This document shows, in pieces, positions 7,880 through 57,640 of a DNA stretch of 64,000 nucleotides (position 1 is its first letter; every line of letters starts with the position of its first letter). Under the pieces are notes generated by a model. That model was not told where the DNA came from, did no database searches, and saw only the letters and a list, made by a program, of their open reading frames with translations. The DNA comes from Malacoraja senta (Eukaryota): assembly GCA_038087875.1 (NCBI GenBank), contig CM075993.1, positions 1,924,001 to 1,988,000 on the forward strand, read 5' to 3'. The translations under genes were made by a program, and so were the position numbers.

Positions 7880-8234
7880 GAAACGTACCGAATAATGAAA
7901 TGCTTGGATGGGGTGGATGTGGAGAGGATGTTTCCACTAGTGGGAGAGTCTAGGAATAGAGGTCACAGCCTTAGAATTAAAGTACGTTTCTTTAGGAAGG
8001 AGATGAGGAGGAATTTCTTCAGTCAGAGGGTGGTGAATCTGTGGAATTCTTTGTCACAGAATGCTGTGGAGGACAAGTCAATTGATATTTTTAAGGCAAA
8101 GATAGATAGATTCTTGATTAGTACGGGTGTCAGAGGTTAAGGGGAGAAGGCAGGAGAATGGGGATAGGAGGAGAGATAGATCAGCCATGATTGAATGGCA
8201 GAGTTGACCTGATGAATAGCAGAGTTGACCTGAT
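7880..8234 (+). mobile_element. CR1 3' fragment (its tail resumes at about 9435-9480 after a nested CR1)
   Basis: IETYRIMK..RGHSLRIK..NFFSQRVVNLWNSL. Confidence 0.8.
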
Positions 8235-9434
8235 TTCAGAAGGCTTTCGACAAGGTACCACATAAGAGATTAGGATACAAACTTAAATCACACGGTATTG
8301 GGGGTTCAGTATTGATGTGGATAGAGAACTGGCTGGCAAACAGGAAGCAAAGAGTAGGAGTAAACGGGTCCTTTTCACAATGGCAGGCAGTGACTAGTGG
8401 GGTACCGCAAGGCTCACTGCTGGGACCCCAGCTATTTACAATTTATATTAATGATCTGGACGAGGGAATTGAAAGCAACATCTCCAAGTTTGCGGATGAC
8501 ACTAAGCTGGGGGGCAGTGTTAGCTGTGAGGAGGATGCCAGGAGACTGCAAGGTGACTTGGATAGGCTGGGTGAGTGGGCAAATGTTTGGCAGATGCAGT
8601 ATAATGTGGATAAATGTGAGGTTATCCACTTTGGTGGCAAAAACGGGAAGGCAGACTATTATCTAAATGGTGGCCGATTAGGAAATGGGGAGATGCAGCG
8701 AGACCTGGGTGTCATGGTACACCAGTCATTGAAAGTAGGCATGCAGGTGCAGCAGGCAGTGAAGAAAGCGAATGGTATGTTGGCTTTCATAGCAAAAGGA
8801 TTTGAGTATAGGAGCAGGGAGGTTCTACTGCAGTTGTACAGGGTCTTGGTGAGACCACACCTGGAGTATGGCGTACAGTTTTGGTCTCCAAATCTGAGGA
8901 AGGACATTATAGCTATAGAAGGAGTGCAGAGAAGGTTCACCAGACTGATTCCTGGGATGTCAGGACTTTCATATGAAGAAAGACTGGATAGACTTGGCTT
9001 ATACTCGCTAGAATTTAGGAGATTGAGAGGGGATTTTATAGAAACGTACAAAATTCTTATGGGGTTGGACAGGCTAGATGCAGGAAGATTGTTCCCGATG
9101 TTGGGGAAGTCCAGGACAAGGGGTCACAGCTTAAGGATAAGGGGGAAATCCTTTAAGACCGAGATGAGGAAAAACTTTTTCACACAGAGAGTGGTGAATC
9201 TCTGGAACTCTCTGCCACAGAGGGTAGTTGAGGCCAGTTCATTGGCTATATTTAAGAGGGAGTTAGATGTGTCCCTTGTGGCTAAAGGGATCAGGGGGTA
9301 TGGAGAGAAGGCAGGTACGGGATACTGAGTTGGATGATCAGCCATGATCATATTGAATGGTGGTGCAGGCTCGAAGGGCCGAATGGCCTACTCCTGCACC
9401 TATTTTCTATGTATCTATGTATTCTATATATCTA
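8235..9434 (+). mobile_element. 5'-truncated CR1 LINE with uninterrupted RT C-terminal ORF (8312-9328)
   Basis: FQKAFDKVPH upstream, GVPQGSLLGP, SKFADDTKL, RPHLEYGVQFWSP, WNSLP, and a (TCTATGT)-like tail. Confidence 0.93.
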
Positions 9435-31292: not shown

Positions 31293-31825
31293 ATAGATAC
31301 ATAGATACATAGACAATAGGTGCAGGAGTAGGCCATTCGGCCCTTCGAGCCTGCACCGCCATTCAATATGATCATGGCTGATCATCCAACTCAGTATCCT
31401 GTACCTGCCTTCTCTCCATACCCCCTGATCCCTTTAGCCACAAGGGCCACATCTAACTCTCTCTTAAATATAGCCAATGAACTGGCCTCAACTACCCTCT
31501 GTGGCAGAGAGTTCCAGAGATTTACCACTCTCTGTGTGAAAAAGTTTTTTCTCATCTCGGTCTTAAAGGATTTCCCCCTTATCCTTAAGCTGTGACCCCT
31601 TGTCCTGGACTTCCCCAACATCGGGAACAATCTTCCTGCATCTAGCCTGTCCAACCCATAAGAATTTTGTACGTTTCTATAAGATCCCCTCTCAATCTCC
31701 TAAATTCTAGCGAGTATAAGCCAAGTCTATCCAGTCTTTCTTCATATGAAAGTCCTGACATCCCAGGAATCAGTCTGGTGAACCTTCTCTGCACTCCCTC
31801 TATGGCTATAATGTCCTTCCTCAGA
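31293..31825 (-). mobile_element. CR1 3' fragment, same young subfamily as 8235-9434
   Basis: Near-identical LRKDIIAIEGVQRRFTRLIPGMSG..GYGEKAGTGY with one frameshift. Confidence 0.9.
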
Positions 31826-31868
31826 TCAGCCACCACAGTCCCCCTATTGACCACTAGTGTCACTGCTG

Positions 31869-40695: not shown

Positions 40696-41241
40696 CACTA
40701 ATGCTATGTAGAAAATACAGCACAAAAATAGGACACGAATTGCTGGAGTAACTCAGCGGGTCAGGCAGCATCTCTGGAGATAAGGAACGGGTGACGTTTT
40801 GGGTCGAGATCCTTCTTCAGACTGATTGTCACAATTGTATTCTTAGTCCTCTGAAGACTCATCATTAGCAATGTCTCCCACTGTTCTCAGCCTCATGTTT
40901 ATCCACACATATATAACGCAAGCAACCATTAGAAATCAGCATGTCGCTTCAATGAAACCAACTACCGTGCATGTGTTGATCCAAAGTATCTTCAAAGAAC
41001 AGTTGGCCCTAATTGCTAATAAAATGTTGTATGAGACCGAGATATCCGCATTTAAAGAAATCATTAACAGATGCTTTGATCTGTCGTTTTCACACCTTAC
41101 CCTTCCATATCTCTAGTCTACCTCTCCCCTGACTTTCATCCTGAAGAAGGGTCTCGACCCGAAACGTCACCCACTCCTTCTCCCCAGAGACGCTGCCTGT
41201 CCCGCTGAGTTACTCCAGCATTTGAAAATAAGTACTCCTGT

Positions 41242-41856
41242 TTGAGTACTGTTGGGGGGGACAGCCTTCCTGGGGGTAGCGACAGCGGCCGGGCCTCCGG
41301 CACAGAGACCGGCCCTATTGCTCAGAAGGGTAGGGAAAAGAAGAGGAGGGCAATAGTAATAGGGGACTCTATGGTTAGGGGGTCGGATAGGCGATTCTGT
41401 GGACGCAGTCAGGAGACCCGGATGGTAGTTTGCCTCCCTGGTGCCAGGGTCAGGGATGTGTCTGAACGCGTCCAAGATATCCTGAAATCGGAGGGAGAGG
41501 AGCCTGAGGTTGTGGTACATATAGGTACCAATGACATAGGCAGAAAAAGAGAAGAGGTCCTGAAAGGAGAATTTAGGGAGTTGGGAGGAGAGTTAAGGAG
41601 AAGGACCGCAAAGGTAACAATCTCGGGATTACTACCTGTGCCACGCGACAGTGAGAGTAGGAATGAAATGAGGTGGAGGATAAATGCGTGGCTGAGGAAC
41701 TGGTGCAGCGGGCACGGATTCAAATTTCTGGATCATTGGGACCTCTTTTGGGGAAGGTGTGACCTGTACAGAAAGGACGCGTTGCACTTGAACCCGAGGG
41801 GGACCAATATCCTGGCGGGGAGATTTGCAAAGGCTACTGGGGAGACTTTAAACTAG
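41242..41856 (+). CDS. CR1 ORF1 C-terminal SGNH/GDSL esterase domain (5'-truncated)
   Basis: IVIGDSMVRG (block I Ser), LPGARV (Gly), HIGTND (Asn), DALHLN (DxxH). True start lost. Confidence 0.9.
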   Translation: MSTVGGDSLPGGSDSGRASGTETGPIAQKGREKKRRAIVIGDSMVRGSDRRFCGRSQETRMVVCLPGARVRDVSERVQDILKSEGEEPEVVVHIGTNDIGRKREEVLKGEFRELGGELRRRTAKVTISGLLPVPRDSESRNEMRWRINAWLRNWCSGHGFKFLDHWDLFWGRCDLYRKDALHLNPRGTNILAGRFAKATGETLN

Positions 41857-41861
41857 AACGG

Positions 41862-44795
41862 TTGGGGGGAGGGACTCAAATAGAGAAAGCTAGTAGAAAA
41901 TGTGGGAGGCAGGAGGCAGAGAAGGGAAGCACTCGGACCCAAAATGTAGGGGAGAAAGAAGAAAAAGATAATAAACAGAGAATAAGTGGTGGTGGGTTTC
42001 TTAAATGTGTATATTTTAATGCTAGGAGCATTGTAAGAAAGGTGGATGAGCTTAGAGTCTGGATTGACACCTGGAAGTATGATGTTGTGGCGATCAGTGA
42101 AACATGGTTGCAGGAGGGCTGTGATTGGAAACTAAATATTCCAGGATTTCGTTGCTTCAGGGGTGACAGAATTGGAGGGGCAAGAGGTGGGGGTGTTGCA
42201 TTGCTTGTCAAGGAAGATATTACAGCAGTGCTTTGGCAGGATAGATTAGAGGGCTCGTCTAGGGAGGCTATTTGGGTGGAACTGAGAAATGGGAAAGGTG
42301 TAGCAACACTTATAGGGGTGTATTATAGACCGCCAAATGGGGAGCGAGAATTGGAAGAGCAAATATGTAAGGAGATAGCAGATATTAGTAGTAAGCACAA
42401 GGTAGTGACTGTGGGAGATTTCAATTTTCCACACATAGACTGGGAAACACATTCTGTAAAAGGGCTGGATGGTTTGGAGTTTGTAAAATGTGTGCAGGAT
42501 AGTTTTTTGCAGCAATACATAGAGGTACCTACTAGAGAAGGGGCAGTGCTGGACCTCCTGTTAGGAAATGAGACAGGGCAGGTGGCGGAGGTATGCGTTG
42601 GGGAGCACTTCGGGTCCAGTGATCACAATACCATTAGTTTCAATATAATTATGGAGAGGGTCAGAACTGGACCTAGGGTTGAGATTTTTGTTTGGAGAAA
42701 GGCTAACTTTGAGGAGATGCGAAAGGATTTAAAAGGAGTGAATTGGGACATGTTGTTTTATGGGAAGGATGTAGAAGAGAAATGGAGGACATTTAAAGGT
42801 GAAATTTTAAGAGTACAGAATCTTTATGTCCCAGTTCGTTTGAAAGGAAATAGTAAAAATTGGAAAGAGCCATGGTTTTCAAGGGAAATTGGACACTTGG
42901 TTCGGAAAAAGAGAGAGATCTACAATAATTATAGGCAGCATGGAGTAAATGAGGTGCTTGAGGAGTATAAAGAATGTAAAAAGAATATTAAGAAAGAAAT
43001 TAGAAAAGCTAAAAGAAGATACGAGGTTGCTTTGGCAAGTAAGGTGAAAGTAAATCCAAAGGGTTTCTACAGCTATATTAATAGCAAAAGGATAACAAGG
43101 AATACAATTGGTCCATTAGAGAGTCAGAGTGGACAGCTATCTGCAGAGCCAAAAGAGATGGGGGAGATATTGAACAATTTCTTTTCTTCGGTATTCACCA
43201 AGGAGAAGGATATGGAATTATGTGAGGTAAGGGAAACAAGCAGAGTAGCAATGGAAACTATGAGATTCAAAGAAGAGGAGGTGCGGACACTTTTGAAAAA
43301 TATGAAAACGGATAAGTCTCGAGGTCCTGACAGGATATTCCCTTGGACATTGAGGGAAGTTAGTGTAGAAATAGCAGGGGCTATGACAGAAATATTTCAA
43401 ATGTCATTAGAAACGGGAATAGTGCCAGAGGATTGGCGTACTGCGCATGTTGTTCCGTTGTTTAAAAAGGGTTCCAAGAGTAAACCTAGCAATTATAGAC
43501 CTGTTAGTTTGACGTCAGTTGTGGGCAAATTAATGGAAAGGATACTTAGAGATAATATATATAAGCATCTGGATAAGCAGGGTCTGATTAGGAAAAGTCA
43601 ACATGGATTTGTGCCTGGAAGGTCATGTTTGACTAATCTTCTAGAATTTTTCGAAGAGCTTACTAGGGAAATTGATGAAGGTAAAGCAGTGGATGTTGTC
43701 TATATGGACTTCAGTAAGGCCTTTGACAAGGTTCCTCATGGAAGGTTGGTTAAGAAGATTCAATTGTTGGGTATTAATGGTGGAGTAGCAAGATGGATTC
43801 AACAGTGGCTGAATGGGAGATGCCAGAGAGTAATGGTGGATGGCTGTTTGTCAGGTTGGAGGCCGGTGACTAGTGGGATGCCTCAGAGGTCTGTGTTGGG
43901 TCCACTGTTGTTTGTCATGTACATCAATGATCTGGATGATGATGTGGAAAATTGGATTAGTAAGTATGCAGATGATACTAAGATAGGTGGTGTGGTGGAT
44001 AATGAAGTAGATTTTCAAAGTCTACAGAGAGATTTAGGCCATTTGGAAGAGTGGGCTGAAAGATGGCAGATGGAGTTTAATGTTGATAAATGTGAGGTAC
44101 TACATCTCGGCAGGACAAATCAAAATAGGACGTACATGGTAAATGGTAGAGAATTGAGGAATGCAGTTGAACAGAGGGATCTAGGAATAACTGTGTATAG
44201 TTCCCTGAAGGTGGAATCTCATGTAGATAGGGTGGTAAAGAAAGCTTTTGGTGTGCTGGCCTTTATAAATCAGAGCATTGAATATAGAAGTTGGGATGTA
44301 ATGTTAAAATTGTACAAGGCATTGGTGAGGCCAATTCTGGAGTATGGAGTACAATTTTGGTCGCCTAATTATAGGAAGGATGTCAACAAAATAGATGGAG
44401 TACAGAGGAGATTTACTGGGTTTCAGCAACTAAGTTACAGAGAAAGGTTGAACAAGTTAGGTCTTTATTCTTTGGAGCGCAGACGGTTAAGAGGGGACTT
44501 GATAGAGGTCTTTAAAATTATGAGCGGGTTAGACAGAGTTGACGTGGATAAGCTTTTTCCATTGAGAGTAGGGAAGATTCAAACAAGGGGACATGACTTG
44601 AGAATTAAGGGACAGAAGTTTAGGGGGAACATTAGGGGGAACTTCTTTACTCAGAGAGTGGTAGCTGTGTGGAATGAGCTTCCAGTGGAAGTGGTGGAGG
44701 CAGGTTCGATTTTATCCTTTAAAAATAGATTGGATGGGTATATGGACGGGAAAGTAATGGAGGGTTATGGTCTGAGTGCAGGTAGATGGGACTAG
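41862..44795 (+). CDS. CR1 ORF2: APE endonuclease plus reverse transcriptase
   Basis: YFNARS, ISETWL, GDFNFP, LDLLL, SDHN (APE); NYRPVSLTS, QHGF, MDFSKAFDKVPH, YADD (RT). Open for 977 codons. PQG is changed to PQR and there is a probable short in-frame deletion at RRFTGF. Confidence 0.95.
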   Translation: MGGGTQIEKASRKCGRQEAEKGSTRTQNVGEKEEKDNKQRISGGGFLKCVYFNARSIVRKVDELRVWIDTWKYDVVAISETWLQEGCDWKLNIPGFRCFRGDRIGGARGGGVALLVKEDITAVLWQDRLEGSSREAIWVELRNGKGVATLIGVYYRPPNGERELEEQICKEIADISSKHKVVTVGDFNFPHIDWETHSVKGLDGLEFVKCVQDSFLQQYIEVPTREGAVLDLLLGNETGQVAEVCVGEHFGSSDHNTISFNIIMERVRTGPRVEIFVWRKANFEEMRKDLKGVNWDMLFYGKDVEEKWRTFKGEILRVQNLYVPVRLKGNSKNWKEPWFSREIGHLVRKKREIYNNYRQHGVNEVLEEYKECKKNIKKEIRKAKRRYEVALASKVKVNPKGFYSYINSKRITRNTIGPLESQSGQLSAEPKEMGEILNNFFSSVFTKEKDMELCEVRETSRVAMETMRFKEEEVRTLLKNMKTDKSRGPDRIFPWTLREVSVEIAGAMTEIFQMSLETGIVPEDWRTAHVVPLFKKGSKSKPSNYRPVSLTSVVGKLMERILRDNIYKHLDKQGLIRKSQHGFVPGRSCLTNLLEFFEELTREIDEGKAVDVVYMDFSKAFDKVPHGRLVKKIQLLGINGGVARWIQQWLNGRCQRVMVDGCLSGWRPVTSGMPQRSVLGPLLFVMYINDLDDDVENWISKYADDTKIGGVVDNEVDFQSLQRDLGHLEEWAERWQMEFNVDKCEVLHLGRTNQNRTYMVNGRELRNAVEQRDLGITVYSSLKVESHVDRVVKKAFGVLAFINQSIEYRSWDVMLKLYKALVRPILEYGVQFWSPNYRKDVNKIDGVQRRFTGFQQLSYRERLNKLGLYSLERRRLRGDLIEVFKIMSGLDRVDVDKLFPLRVGKIQTRGHDLRIKGQKFRGNIRGNFFTQRVVAVWNELPVEVVEAGSILSFKNRLDGYMDGKVMEGYGLSAGRWD

Positions 44796-45621
44796 GGGGA
44801 AGTATTTATTTATTTTTAAAAAAAAATGTTCGGCACGGACTTGAAGGGCCGAGATGGCCTGTTTCCGTGCTGTAATGGTTATATGGTTATATGGTTATAT
44901 TTCGTGTCTATCTTCGGTGTAAGCCAGCATCTGCAGTTCCTCCCTTACACAAAATAACAGGTGGTTTCTTGAGGACAGAAATCAATGTGTACTTCAGCAC
45001 CTCTGGTGAAGTCACACCCACATGGAATCCATTAAATAACCCTAGCCAAAAATAAGTCCTCATCTGTGAAATGTCTTGATCACAATCACTGCAGAACACA
45101 CCACATCCATCCATCATGCTCCATATAATGTGAAAATTATTATGAAAAATTGTGGATAATCCATCATCTTTCTGATATTATTTAAAGAAAGAGTACAGCG
45201 ATACAAAACAGGACCCTATAGTGTGCATCAATAAGCCTCAATTGATGTTGCATCACCTCCTAATGTTGTGTTCTTTAAAAGTCAATTTAATAAATCACTA
45301 TTAGAAATCAAAGGGATTTTCTCAATTACTTGTCAAAACATCCATTTTTCTGTCATCACCGTCACATCCAACAGGCCACACACCATGAAATATTTATTTA
45401 TCTAAAACCCATCTCCTCAGACTGGAAATATTTTTCACGGTGAAGTCATCAGAGGGAGAATTTCATTTATAGAAAGCCTTTCAAAAGTTGCGGGAGCAGA
45501 GATTGAATCGTTTCCTGAGAACTCTTTATCCCATGGTGTTACTCCAAGCCATGGATCCTCCGACAAGGAGAAGGGTCTTCTTCAGGTCCACTCTGTTGTG
45601 TCCTACTAGGAACTCACATTT

Positions 45622-49118: not shown

Positions 49119-49317
49119 ATTGTAACATTGATATGGTGATGTCTTGACTACACGTACTGTATATAGAGCGTTGGTGAGACCACACCTGAAGCATTGTTCC
49201 ACTGAGTGGTTTACCTTCAGGGCAAATATCATAGAGGTCTCATATGTGGTGGGATGATTGCGTTAGCACAGGTTGAATAGAGAGGAGTTTTCTTTGAAGT
49301 TTAGCAAGATAAGACAG

Positions 49318-49839
<522 letters not shown>

Positions 49840-49944
49840 CAAAGACGTACAGATTTGAAGGTTAATTGGCTTCAGTAAAAGAAGTTGTGACTTGTCCCTG
49901 GGATAGTACTAGCCTACGGGGTGATTGCTGGTCGGCACAGACTC

Positions 49945-52808: not shown

Positions 52809-54247
52809 TAAGCATTTGAAACTTGTCCCCATTTAACACTGGCAATCATCTCTCCTTTAAATAACTTAAGAAGGTGAGTAGACACAAAATGCTGGAGTAA
52901 CTCAGCGGGACAGGCAGCATCTCTGGAGAGAAGGAATGGGTGACGTTTCGGGGCGAGACCCTTCTTCAGATTGTGAGTACTTTGACCAAAACCTTTTAGT
53001 CTTCGAGTCACGGAGTTATACAGTGTGGAAGCAGGCCCCTCGGCCTTAATATTTTTATGGCCGAGATAGATAGCCCGAAACGTTGCCTATTTCCTTCGCT
53101 CCATAGATGCTGCTGCACCCGCTGAGTTTCTCCAGCATTTTTGTCCACCTTCGATTTTCCAGCATCTGCAGTTCCTTCTTAAACAAAGATAGATTCTTGA
53201 TTCAGGGGTTATGGGGAGGAGGCAGGAGAATGGGGTTAGGTGGGAGAGATAGATCAGCCACGGTTGAATGGCGGAGTAGACTTGATGGGCCGAATGGCCT
53301 AATTCTGCTCCTATCACTTATGAACGGATGGACTTATGACTCTGGGACTCTGCGGTGACACATTACAGATGAAAGGAGGAGGCTGGAGAAACTACCTGCT
53401 TAAATATCTGTTTGCTTCATGGGTCTTATTTCCATGCAGTAATGAACCATAAGGCAATTGAAGTCATCACCGCAAGGAAGCTGGCTTTAGACTACATCTC
53501 CATGGCAACCATTCCTTCCAGTAGAGTGAGAAAGGAAAATTAGTGACCTCCTGCAATTGTTAATCACTTACTGGATCACAAGGTATATTTTAATGGGGAT
53601 AGATGCTGGAGTAACTCAGCGGGACAGGCAGCATCTCTGGAGAGAAGGAACGGGTGACGTTTCGGGTTCGAGACCCTTCTTCAGACTGAGAGTCAGGGGA
53701 GAGGGAGACACAGAGATGTGGAAGGGGAAGGTGTGAAAATGTGGCATCAAAGGGGATGAGGATTAAGGAGAATGTAGAGTTGATCATTGTTAGCTGAGGG
53801 GAAGGTGACAACGAAGCTTACAGAGATAATATTTAGTCAGGAGGGCAGTCAGACTGGTCGGAGAACTCATGGCAGCTCGCTACCCCTTCGAGGAACAGGT
53901 CCTTGATCCTTGAACAGTAAATAGACATTCTTCAAAAACAGAAGGACACAAAGTGCTGGAGTAACGGCAGATCAGGCAGCATCTCTGCAGCACATGGCCA
54001 GGTGACATTTCGGATCAGGATCCTCTTCAGACTCCATGTTCTCCAGTGATGCTGCCTGGAATGATCTTTTTGTAAACCAGCATCTACAGCTGATTGTATC
54101 CAGATCAGTCTGACAGAAGGAGAAGGGGCCCCAACCTGAAATGCCACCTGTCCATGTTCTCCAGAGATGCTGACTCACCTGCCTTGTTACTCCAGCTCTT
54201 TGTGATGTCTTTCAGATATCAGACATAGGGGTTTCAATTAAATGAAA

Positions 54248-55204
54248 CTCCCCACCTCCCCCTCTCTCTCTCCCCCCTCTCTCCCACTCTCCCTCTCTCC
54301 TCTCCCTCCCCCCCCCCCTCTCCTTCTTCCCTCTCCCTCTCCCTCTCCCCCTCCCTCTCCCTCTCCCTCTCCCCCTCCCTCTCCCTCTCCCTCCCCCTCT
54401 CCCTCTCCCTCCCCTCTCCCTCTCCCTCTCCCTCTCTCCCCCTCTCCCTCTCCCTCTCCCTCCCCCTCTCCCTCTCCCTCTCCCTCTCCCTCTCCCTCTC
54501 CCTCTCCCTCTCCCCCTCCCCCTCCCTCTCCTTCTTCCCTCTCCCTCTCCCTCTCCCCCTCCCTCTCCCTCTCCCTCTCCCTCTCCCCCTCCCCTCCCTC
54601 TCCCTCTCCCTCTCCCTCTCCCTCTCCCTCTCCCCTCCCTCTCCCTCTCCCCCTCCCTCTCCCTCCCCCTCTCCCTCTCCCCTCTCCCCCTCTCCCCCTC
54701 TCCCCCTCTCCCCCTCTCCCCCTCTCCCCCTCTCCCCCTCTCCCATCCCCCTCTCCCCCTCTCTCCCTCTCTCTCCCTCCCCCCTTCCCCCTCCCCCCTC
54801 TCCCCTTCTCCCCTCTCCCTCTCCCCCTCCCCTCCTCCTTCCCCCTCCCCTCCCTCCCCCCTCCCCCCTCTCCCCTTCTCCCCCTCTCCCCCTCTCCCCC
54901 TCCCCTCTCCCTCCCTCCCTCCCCCCCTCCCTCTCCCTCTCCCTCTCCCTCTCCCCCTCCCCTCCCTCTCCCTCCCTCCCTCTCCCCCTCCCTCTCCCCC
55001 TCCATCTCCCCCTCCCTCTCCCTCCCTCCCTCCCCCCTCCCTCTCCCTCTCCCTCTACCTCTCCTCCTCCCCCTCCCCCTCCCCCTCCTCCTTCTCCCTC
55101 CCTCCCTCCCTCCCTCTCCCTCTCCCTCTCCCTCTCCCTCTCCCTCTCCCTCTCCCTCTCTCCCCTCCCTCTCCCTCTCCCTCTCCCTCTCCCCCTCCCT
55201 CTCT
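54248..55204. repeat. About 950-bp polypyrimidine/polypurine tract, (CCCTCT)n-like
   Basis: Almost exclusively C and T on the + strand. Confidence 0.97.
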
Positions 55205-55711
55205 CAGACACACACACATTTACTTCTCACTGGGATGATTGCAATCGCTCCCAATGATTAGCCCACAGCTTGCTTTGAGATTGTGGAAGCTGAATGTGAA
55301 ACATGCCGTAATTGCCGTGGGCAGGAGACACAATTATGCGCGATCATCCCATGCGGAGTTCCACGACGAACAGCGACCACAGTCTCCATCTGATCTGCAA
55401 ATGTGAAGAGATTGAGGTTGACTTATTCCACTTGACCAAACTAATGCCCGCCAAGGTGCAGCCTCCCAAATACATGCACCTCGCCACGCAAATAAATCTA
55501 AATCCAGGTGCCAATTGAGGTGACTGGACTTAGTTTCCAACATCGTTCATAGCCCGAGACACCAGAGGCTCATCTACAACCAATTCAATTGTAAATGATT
55601 TGTTGAAGATTAGAATAAGCACAATATGAATCCAAATGGACCCAGAATTTATACCGACATCAAACAGATGGCAATGGTGTTTGCGTTGTTATATGAGATT
55701 AATCTGCCTAA

Positions 55712-55929: not shown

Positions 55930-56211
55930 TAATTCAGATACACAGAGGAAGAGAAGCCATCTCTTTCCCAACCATGTCTATGTTGACCAACCATCTGAAT
56001 GATGGTCACAACATGCTGGAGTAACTCAGCGGGACAGGTAGCATCTCTGGAGAGACGGCACAGGCGACGTTGTGGGTCGAGACCCTTCTCTTGATCTGTA
56101 GCCTTCTCTGTCTTGGCCTCTAGATGTCCTCTTCTGGTTACCCCTTCAAGACAGAGTGGGACTACCTGCCTCCACCATCCATTCAGGAAGTGCAGACATT
56201 AAATTGTAACT

Positions 56212-57105
56212 GGACTTTCAAAGAGCCTTTGATAAGGTCCCACACAGATTAGTGTGCACACTTCGAGCAGGGTAGGGTATTGACATGGATGGAGAACTGG
56301 TTGGCAGACAGGAAGCAAAGAGTAGGAATTAACGGGTCCTTTTCAGAATGGCAGGCAGTGACTAGTGGGCAGCCGCAAGGCTCAGTGCTGAGACCCTACT
56401 TATTTGTAATTTATATTAACGATTTAGATGAGGGAATTAAATGTAACATCTCCAAGTTTACGGATGACACAAAGCTGGGTGGCAGTGTGAGCTGCGATGA
56501 GGATGCTATGAGGCTGCAGGGTGACTTGGACAAGTTGGGTGAGTGGGCAGATGCATGGCAGATGCAGTATAATGTGGATAAATGTGAGGTTATCTACTTT
56601 GGTGGCAAGAACTGGAAGGCAGATTACTATCTGAATGGTGTCAGATTAGGAGAAGGGGAGTTGCAATGAGACCTGGGTGTGTTTGTACATGTCAGTCACT
56701 GAAAGCAAGCCTGCAGGTATAGCAGGCAGTGAAGAAAGCTAATGGTATGTTAGCCTTCATTGCGAGAGAATTTGAGTTTAGGAGCAAGGAGGTCCTACTG
56801 CAGTTGTACAGGGTCCTTGTGAGACCGCACCTGGAGTATTGTGTGCAGTTTTAATCTCCTAATTTGAGGAAGGACATTATTGCTATTGAGGGAGTGCAGC
56901 GTAGGTTAATGAATAGGATGGCAGGACTGACATATGATGAAAGAATGGGTTGACTGGATTTATATTCACTGGAATTTAGAAGGATGAGAGGGAATCTTAT
57001 AGAAACATACACAGTTCTAAAGGGATTGGACAGGCTAGATGCAGGAGAAATGTTCCCCATGTTGGGGGAGTCCAGAACCAGGGGTGACGGTTTAAGAATA
57101 AGGGG
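56212..57105 (+). mobile_element. Decayed CR1 RT fragment
   Basis: WMENWLADRKQRVGINGS..PQGSVL..KFTDDTKL with stops and frameshifts. Confidence 0.9.
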
Positions 57106-57640
57106 AGAAGAGGGAGTGGCCGGGGTGCGACCGGTCCTAAAGCCAGCAAAGGTCAATTAAGGGTGGATTTTATTCAGTGGCATGTGCCATCCCAAATAGG
57201 CCAGCACAGTGTGATGTATCCAGATCCACTAATCTGTGCCCAAATCATAGCCTGTTGGCAAACCTTTGAGCGTGAACCAAGTTCCAGATGGCAAAGTTAA
57301 TTAACAGTGCATTGGAAGTGATCAAATCTGCTTAATTTACTCCAAGCCTGAATATTAGCTGGAGTCTAGATGCCAAATCCTGGTGGCGAGATCGTGTTCC
57401 GTTTGTGTGGCGTTGTACAATTTGGCAGCTCGGTTCATATTTTTATGTTAAAACTATCCCCAAGTCTGGAAGAGGCAATAGCTGGAAAAAACCAATAACT
57501 GAAGCAATGATGTGGGAAGGATGAACTGAAAGCAATTTGGATCCCACGATGTATGGTCGGTTACACAGGCTGCTGGTCTCCTCAGCAAACATATTGATTG
57601 GTATTTATGTGGTTTGGTTATGTGTAGCCGTAGGTGGTTA

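Follow-up and report, generated by a model that had tools for sequence, protein, structure and literature searches.

A conserved slippery heptamer at the ORF1 stop of CR1 retrotransposons as a candidate site of programmed −1 frameshifting into ORF2

In a stretch of 64,000 nucleotides (nt) from Malacoraja senta (assembly GCA_038087875.1, contig CM075993.1, forward-strand positions 1,924,001 to 1,988,000; hereafter the window, numbered from its first letter), a CR1 long interspersed element (LINE) carries an open reading frame 2 (ORF2) whose endonuclease domain lies upstream of the first in-frame methionine codon, raising the question of how this enzyme comes to be translated. According to PMC13343379, CR1 dominates among the retrotransposons of most vertebrate species, and PMC3708506 describes the way in which LINEs translate their ORF2 as unclear; a conserved slip site at the junction of ORF1 and ORF2 would provide a direct test of the latter. 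Judged by the sequence comparisons reported here, programmed −1 frameshifting that yields an ORF1–ORF2 fusion is the best explanation for this junction, with a probability that we put at roughly 80%.

The 3' part of ORF1 (41224..41856, plus strand), which encodes an SGNH/GDSL esterase domain, ends in the codons ACT TTA AAC TAG, such that the heptamer T TTA AAC (41847..41853) makes up its final two sense codons and adjoins the TAG stop (41854..41856). The heptamer has the form X XXY YYZ phased to the ORF1 codons, and the frame of ORF2, which is in the −1 register, is open across the site, where it reads TTT AAA CTA GAA CGG TTG GGG. Canonical slippery heptamers occur across the window at a background of 0.0034 per position; T TTA AAC is the sole in-frame one in the 216 codons of the ORF1 frame and the sole one in the 94-nt overlap. 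Stop to stop, the ORF2 frame extends over 1010 codons (41763..44795, from the ORF and Pfam matches) and encodes an apurinic/apyrimidinic endonuclease (APE; about 42015-42626, Pfam Exo_endo_phos) and a reverse transcriptase (RT; about 43473-44123, Pfam RVT_1), all on the plus strand. Past the ORF1 stop, the −1 frame alone remains open: the AUG-less linker (41857..42014) contains several stops in each of the other frames, and the four ATGs within 41857-42030 are all out of the ORF2 frame. The first methionine in this frame is its residue 297 (42651), 3' of the SDH motif and the endonuclease. The coordinates and codons thus match those of an initial annotation of this DNA, which had placed the heptamer at the ORF1 stop, with a −1 slip leading into ORF2, and had found no methionine in ORF2 until past the SDH motif. 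The register of the slip proposed there stands as well; under the tandem-slip model, the junction protein would read Thr-Leu-Asn-Leu-Glu rather than Phe-Lys-Leu.

Conservation in DNA was analyzed using the first 400 letters of each consensus sequence in Supplementary Table 2 of PMC13343379, in which shark and ray CR1 junctions resemble that of the window by eye. Of the 44 matches to TTTAAACT in this table, 22 are in CR1 or Crack rows, and 19 of these are at the ORF1 end, a position judged by eye in gappy consensuses where the register is unreadable. The 19 junction rows comprise 12 species codes, which we read as sharks, rays, a chimaera, coelacanth, bowfin, a halosaur, a frog, a lizard and crocodilians; the stop behind the heptamer is TAG in 11 rows, TAA in 6 and TGA in 1, and is garbled or missing in the remaining one. 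Among 12 matches to six synonymous spellings of Leu-Asn-TAG, a search that covered TAG stops only, none (0/12) was at a junction, and 11 of the 12 matches to TTTAAACTAG were. Ten rows were picked by the endonuclease motif alone, 9 of them CR1; seven reach the junction and six of the seven have the heptamer there, the row without it being a low-confidence one. Together with the Leu-Asn protein termini described below, these counts answer to what the initial annotation had expected, namely conservation of the heptamer across vertebrate CR1 families, and the free synonymous variation that it had regarded as damaging is absent from the junctions in the search for alternative spellings. These observations indicate that the slip signal is a family trait of CR1, conserved at the nucleotide level.

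A similar pattern was found in ORF1 proteins, which were gathered by esterase similarity alone and hence independently of the heptamer; named members among these relatives come from sharks and rays, turtles and a swallow. A complete C-terminus, defined by a motif rule, was present in 43 of 76 homologs, and 40 of the 43 terminate in Leu-Asn (LN). In a distant set consisting of the best 150 of 2609 representatives of 50% clusters (E 0.001), the 93 complete proteins terminate in LN (41), GN (10), KN (2), EN (2), SN (2) or otherwise (36), and dipeptides that fit X XXY YYZ account for 54/93 termini compared with 78/1550 internal positions. LN, GN and KN are the dipeptides of U_UUA_AAC, G_GGA_AAC and A_AAA_AAC, three of the four most shifty heptamers (PMC5009743). 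Leu, Gly and Lys are chemically unlike, yet all three are encoded by the XXA codons of shifty heptamers. Nine of the ten GN-ending esterases (P0121, P0123, P0127, P0143, P0145, P0147, P0155, P0204, P0210 and P0222), which are represented here by protein sequences, end in QGN, fitting G GGA AAC; the ends of further ORF1 esterases read SKN, FFR or FFH. Immediately before LN, the residues E, K, Q, M and W were found once in 41 proteins, compared with 42/246 at the six preceding positions (Fisher p = 0.016; ORF1 families are related by descent, so p values overstate their independence). The T TTA AAC spelling excludes all five residues at this place, as none of them has a codon ending in T. In the predicted structure of the window ORF1, the confidence (predicted local distance difference test, pLDDT) is 60 at residues 211-215 vs 95 just before, and fish esterases terminate without LN; thus, the fold does not appear to need this dipeptide.

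The −1 register recurs in other CR1 families, as the initial annotation had required of its reading. Four database proteins derive from genomic copies whose ORF1 has shifted into the −1 frame, and these proteins read on as Phe-Lys-Leu (FKL) at the site. Two are gene models from Hypanus, a ray, that run from the esterase through FKL into the endonuclease without a stop (predicted splicing could be hidden in these models); of the remaining two, one runs into a linker like that of the window and one is from a turtle. When longer fused proteins were sought, 9 matches were obtained, among which catfish proteins were rejected as junction fusions because the RT precedes the esterase. A decayed locus (L206) similar to the proteins that end in FFR carries a run of T at the corresponding position, behind which the −1 frame is open for ~75 codons; its endonuclease motif is in a frame other than this one, and the locus lends weak support. 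L206 also belongs to a small group of CR1-type sequences in records labelled bacterial (L202 and L206 of G001:C11, P0004 and P0040), most likely host contamination.

In one raw RNA run (X21) from a related organism, with a CR1 family ~90% alike and a library that looks unstranded, 3343 reads were mapped, and neither a splice joint nor a pile-up of read ends was seen at the junction. The RNA analysis was confined to X21, with the small-share runs X19 and X20 set aside. Splicing across the junction was rejected on this basis, the joints seen in contigs looking like single-copy deletions. Indels in X21 cluster at 41943-41961, read as a net 6 nt, and none is listed at the heptamer. Substitutions at 41823-41858 were absent from the 40 of 144 rows listed, to which we attach little weight, given that ~2 would be expected by chance.

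For active members of the family, these observations are best explained by a single RNA that would encode both the ORF1 and the ORF2 proteins. The majority of ribosomes would end translation at the ORF1 stop, so that the ORF1 protein with its esterase is released, whereas a minority would pause with UUA in the P site and AAC in the A site, slip back one base, bypass the stop and read the linker, the endonuclease and the RT, which would produce an ORF1–ORF2 fusion at a fixed low ratio in the style of retroviral gag-pol. The least certain step is the cause of the pause, which may be the adjacent stop codon or the conserved G-rich run, the latter through a bound protein or a weak quadruplex. The copy in the window is 5'-truncated and has no ORF1 start, so the mechanism can only be a property of the family; this copy is a truncated insert that does not itself make the protein. 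The esterase–APE–RT fusion put forward in the initial annotation is favoured, at the level of sequence, by most of the conservation checks.

Retroviral and coronaviral −1 sites, like the CR1 junction, have a structural protein upstream and an enzyme downstream. Such sites usually come with a pseudoknot or hairpin 5-9 nt downstream. The CR1 junction differs from them in having no predicted pseudoknot or hairpin but only a conserved G-run, and is therefore best viewed as a variant of the gag-pol-type site. At the pol start of bovine leukemia virus stands TTTAAACTAG, which we take to be the pro-pol shift site of this virus. These are the same ten letters as in CR1, with the same stop directly behind the heptamer (primer table of PMC11346035), and infectious bronchitis virus, a coronavirus, uses the same heptamer, U_UUA_AAC (PMC5009743). 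Among LINEs, TRE5-A and TRE3-A, APE-type non-long terminal repeat elements of Dictyostelium, require a −1 frameshift according to PMC5911963; these elements are amoebal, with an APE-RT-zinc finger ORF2, and are compared here by description, the slip site being absent from the figure legend. The vertebrate CR1 elements of PMC13343379 share with the window an esterase ORF1, an APE-RT ORF2, 5' truncation and a repeat tail; the main text of that paper does not discuss a junction signal or mention frameshifting. The word 'frameshift' is likewise not used in the available text of PMC13343379, PMC4316615, PMC3708506, PMC3905857 or PMC4120745 and is applied to decay only in that of PMC4255032, and CR1 is unmentioned in 300,000 of the 449,034 characters of PMC5009743. 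No paper on CR1 frameshifting was found in literature searches, whose scope did not extend to the founding CR1 papers and Repbase notes, so that an earlier mention is quite possible.

Besides the relatedness of the ORF1 families and the placement of consensus junctions by eye, several observations weigh against frameshifting at this site. Some of these concern the G-rich run (41860..41873), which begins 6 nt 3' of the heptamer. With respect to the stimulator that the initial annotation had seen in it, the position holds and the run is conserved, GGGG being found within 15 nt of the stop in 15/19 consensus junctions vs 8% of 15-nt windows in this element, but the folds give no support to a stimulatory role. 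Five downstream or flanking folds were no better than shuffles (z from −0.42 to +0.76), with no stable hairpin; the longest stem from the spacer is 5 bp, and no pseudoknot or hairpin stimulator was found in these folds, including at the 5-9 nt downstream spacing of a canonical −1 signal. Pairing of the G-run with the 3' untranslated region (UTR) of the element was not supported, with 18-43% of control windows as good, and a three-tier G-quadruplex was rejected, the pattern for it being absent; a two-tier quadruplex is predicted but marginal (about −6 kcal/mol). PMC5009743 describes quadruplexes as stimulators of frameshifting in synthetic constructs, with no natural use then known.

The remaining adverse observations come from the comparisons. 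Among the 93 complete distant representatives, 39 end without a slippery dipeptide; some of these appear to be fish L2-like types and some have a candidate site 5' of the stop. The KN group, like the GN group, is represented here by protein sequences. Leu214 ends the last helix of the predicted structure, and its conservation could be partly structural. Both bird copies that reach the junction (L042 and L105) have an altered heptamer, and both are decayed. The lack of an AUG in ORF2, evident in the window, does not extend to CR1 as a whole: UAAUG in the ORF2 frame is found in 3/19 consensus junctions, all of them shark, and three stored linkers (P0232, P0234 and P0005) have an internal methionine, each at a different place.

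The UAAUG junctions bear most directly on termination followed by reinitiation at an overlapping AUG or near-cognate codon in the −1 frame, whereby ORF2 would be made as a separate protein and the G-run would serve as a reinitiation signal. UAAUG itself yields the −1 register, and in the window a near-cognate TTG in the ORF2 frame at 41862 would be available; moreover, Alisch in 2006 is said to have reported that human L1 ORF2 tolerates loss of its AUG. The precedent for this route is SART1, a LINE whose RNA is bicistronic like that of CR1, with ORF2 likewise in the −1 register where ORF1 ends; SART1 employs UAAUG with a downstream structure (PMC3708506, PMC10275272). SART1 differs, however, in that it needs the overlapping AUG and yields separate proteins, whereas the window has no ORF2-frame AUG that overlaps or adjoins the ORF1 stop, and UAAUG is absent from 16/19 junctions; the codon at this place varies, in contrast to the seven invariant bases ahead of the stop. 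Reinitiation also leaves unexplained both the LN, GN and KN set and the codon bias before LN. We therefore regard it as unlikely to be the general mechanism; it may nevertheless act in some CR1 families, by itself or beside frameshifting. The three rows with UAAUG after the heptamer are ScyCan_CR1-1a, SquAca_CR1-17a and SquAca_CR1-6c, families that could both frameshift and reinitiate.

If Leu-Asn were instead a C-terminal protein motif, the heptamer would be its by-product, and translation of ORF2 would use an RNA that is spliced or shorter, or else start at a linker methionine. Such a motif would be in line with the amphipathic-looking helix that Leu214 ends, and a methionine is present in some linkers; but the lack of synonymous spellings at the junction (0/12), the replacement of Leu by Gly or Lys in other groups, the differing places of the linker methionines, and the absence of a splice joint or a pile-up of starts in the single unstranded RNA run from a related organism render this a very improbable account. 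Least probable of all, in our estimate, is slippage of a polymerase or reverse transcriptase at the heptamer, which would leave an extra base in some RNAs and allow the fusion to be made by normal translation. In its favour, some genomic copies have ORF1 and ORF2 in a single frame (P0232 and P0234); against it, the runs of identical bases are only three long, the indels listed for X21 include none at the heptamer, and the site is phased to the ORF1 codons as ribosomal slippage needs.

Programmed frameshifting, our preferred explanation, does not appear to extend to the L2-like relatives in fish. A contig search with a heptamer-independent pattern, covering metagenomes and genomes, yielded at least 205 loci, at least 11 of them true ORF1 relatives; no CR1 was found in the viral contigs and plasmids scanned. 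Elements of the ZfL2-1 type of fish L2 have an esterase homologous to the window ORF1 (PDB 4c1b; PMC3905857), and three fish loci (L080, L038 and L018) are probably L2-type as judged by protein likeness. In all three, which are those with both ORFs visible, TGA-C is followed by ORF2 in the same frame as ORF1, and the stop lacks a slippery heptamer. A fourth fish locus, L049, has the same TGA-C context; in all four the stop is ~420 nt 3' of the pattern match, and L018 has no methionine ahead of the endonuclease start. TGA-C followed by an in-frame ORF2 suggests stop-codon readthrough in place of frameshifting.

A broader scenario, to which we give about even odds, is that −1 frameshifting is ancestral in the esterase-bearing CR1 elements of jawed vertebrates, with a stop-adjacent heptamer and G-run replacing the pseudoknot, the heptamer changing between U_UUA_AAC, G_GGA_AAC and A_AAA_AAC from one distant lineage to another, and UGA-C readthrough taking over in the L2-type relatives of fish. 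If so, LINEs would mirror the retroviral choice between frameshift and readthrough, and the working enzyme would be an esterase–endonuclease–RT fusion rather than the stand-alone ORF2 protein that is usually annotated. If frameshifting does take place at the junction, any CR1 ORF2 protein whose annotation starts at the first internal methionine would be too short, the enzyme would have the esterase of ORF1 attached in cis, and assays with engineered CR1 would need an intact junction. The recoding field would also have an interest in a −1 signal that functions in the absence of a predicted pseudoknot. Novelty is limited, since the mechanism is a textbook one and has a LINE precedent in the Dictyostelium TRE elements.

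The element in the window spans 41224-44898 on the plus strand. Its 3' UTR contains a stem-loop (44831..44872) predicted by a ViennaRNA fold of 44820-44905, and the 3' tail (44873..44898) consists of 8-bp short tandem repeats with no poly(A). Probable target-site duplications, ATTT, flank the element on the left (41220..41223) and on the right (44899..44902), the flanks being a repeat that is multicopy in the window. An ORF2 with APE and RT, an esterase ORF1, a 3' stem-loop, a tandem-repeat tail without poly(A), 5' truncation and a short duplication are all features of CR1 LINEs, and the assignment to CR1 is accordingly put forward on domains and on by-eye likeness to consensus rows labelled CR1. 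The ORF1 remnant matches Pfam Lipase_GDSL_2 (E = 7.7e-15) and PDB 4c1b, an ORF1-encoded protein (E = 1.9e-28). It corresponds to residues 97-311 of the 311-residue homolog P0020 (86% identity) and is without a start codon and ~100 N-terminal residues; its nearest named homologs are Leucoraja (skate) proteins (85-87%). In ORF2 of this copy, the PQG motif is changed to PQR, and 4 residues are absent near 44418, neither change being present in the 4 homologs compared. At 41780, beside the catalytic His of the esterase, the window reads DALH where homologs read DGLH; nearly all RNA reads and contigs have G, which points to a private change.

The insertion target is an abundant short SINE-like repeat (SINE, short interspersed element; 41101-41223 and 44899-44950), of which the window has many copies, often in inverted pairs. 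The presence of TTTAAACCAG in this repeat accounts for the surplus of near matches in the search for a second junction. The window has no second ORF1–ORF2 junction, and no other ORF2 fragment in it reaches that point. Other CR1-like families are represented by 5'-truncated ORF2 fragments at 8234-9328, 31403-31830 and 56177-57130 and by ~20 shorter ones, with amino-acid identities of 43-73%. Two further regions, 49240-49908 and 54212-55261, are strongly skewed in composition and open in several frames on both strands, and are probably simple tandem repeats.

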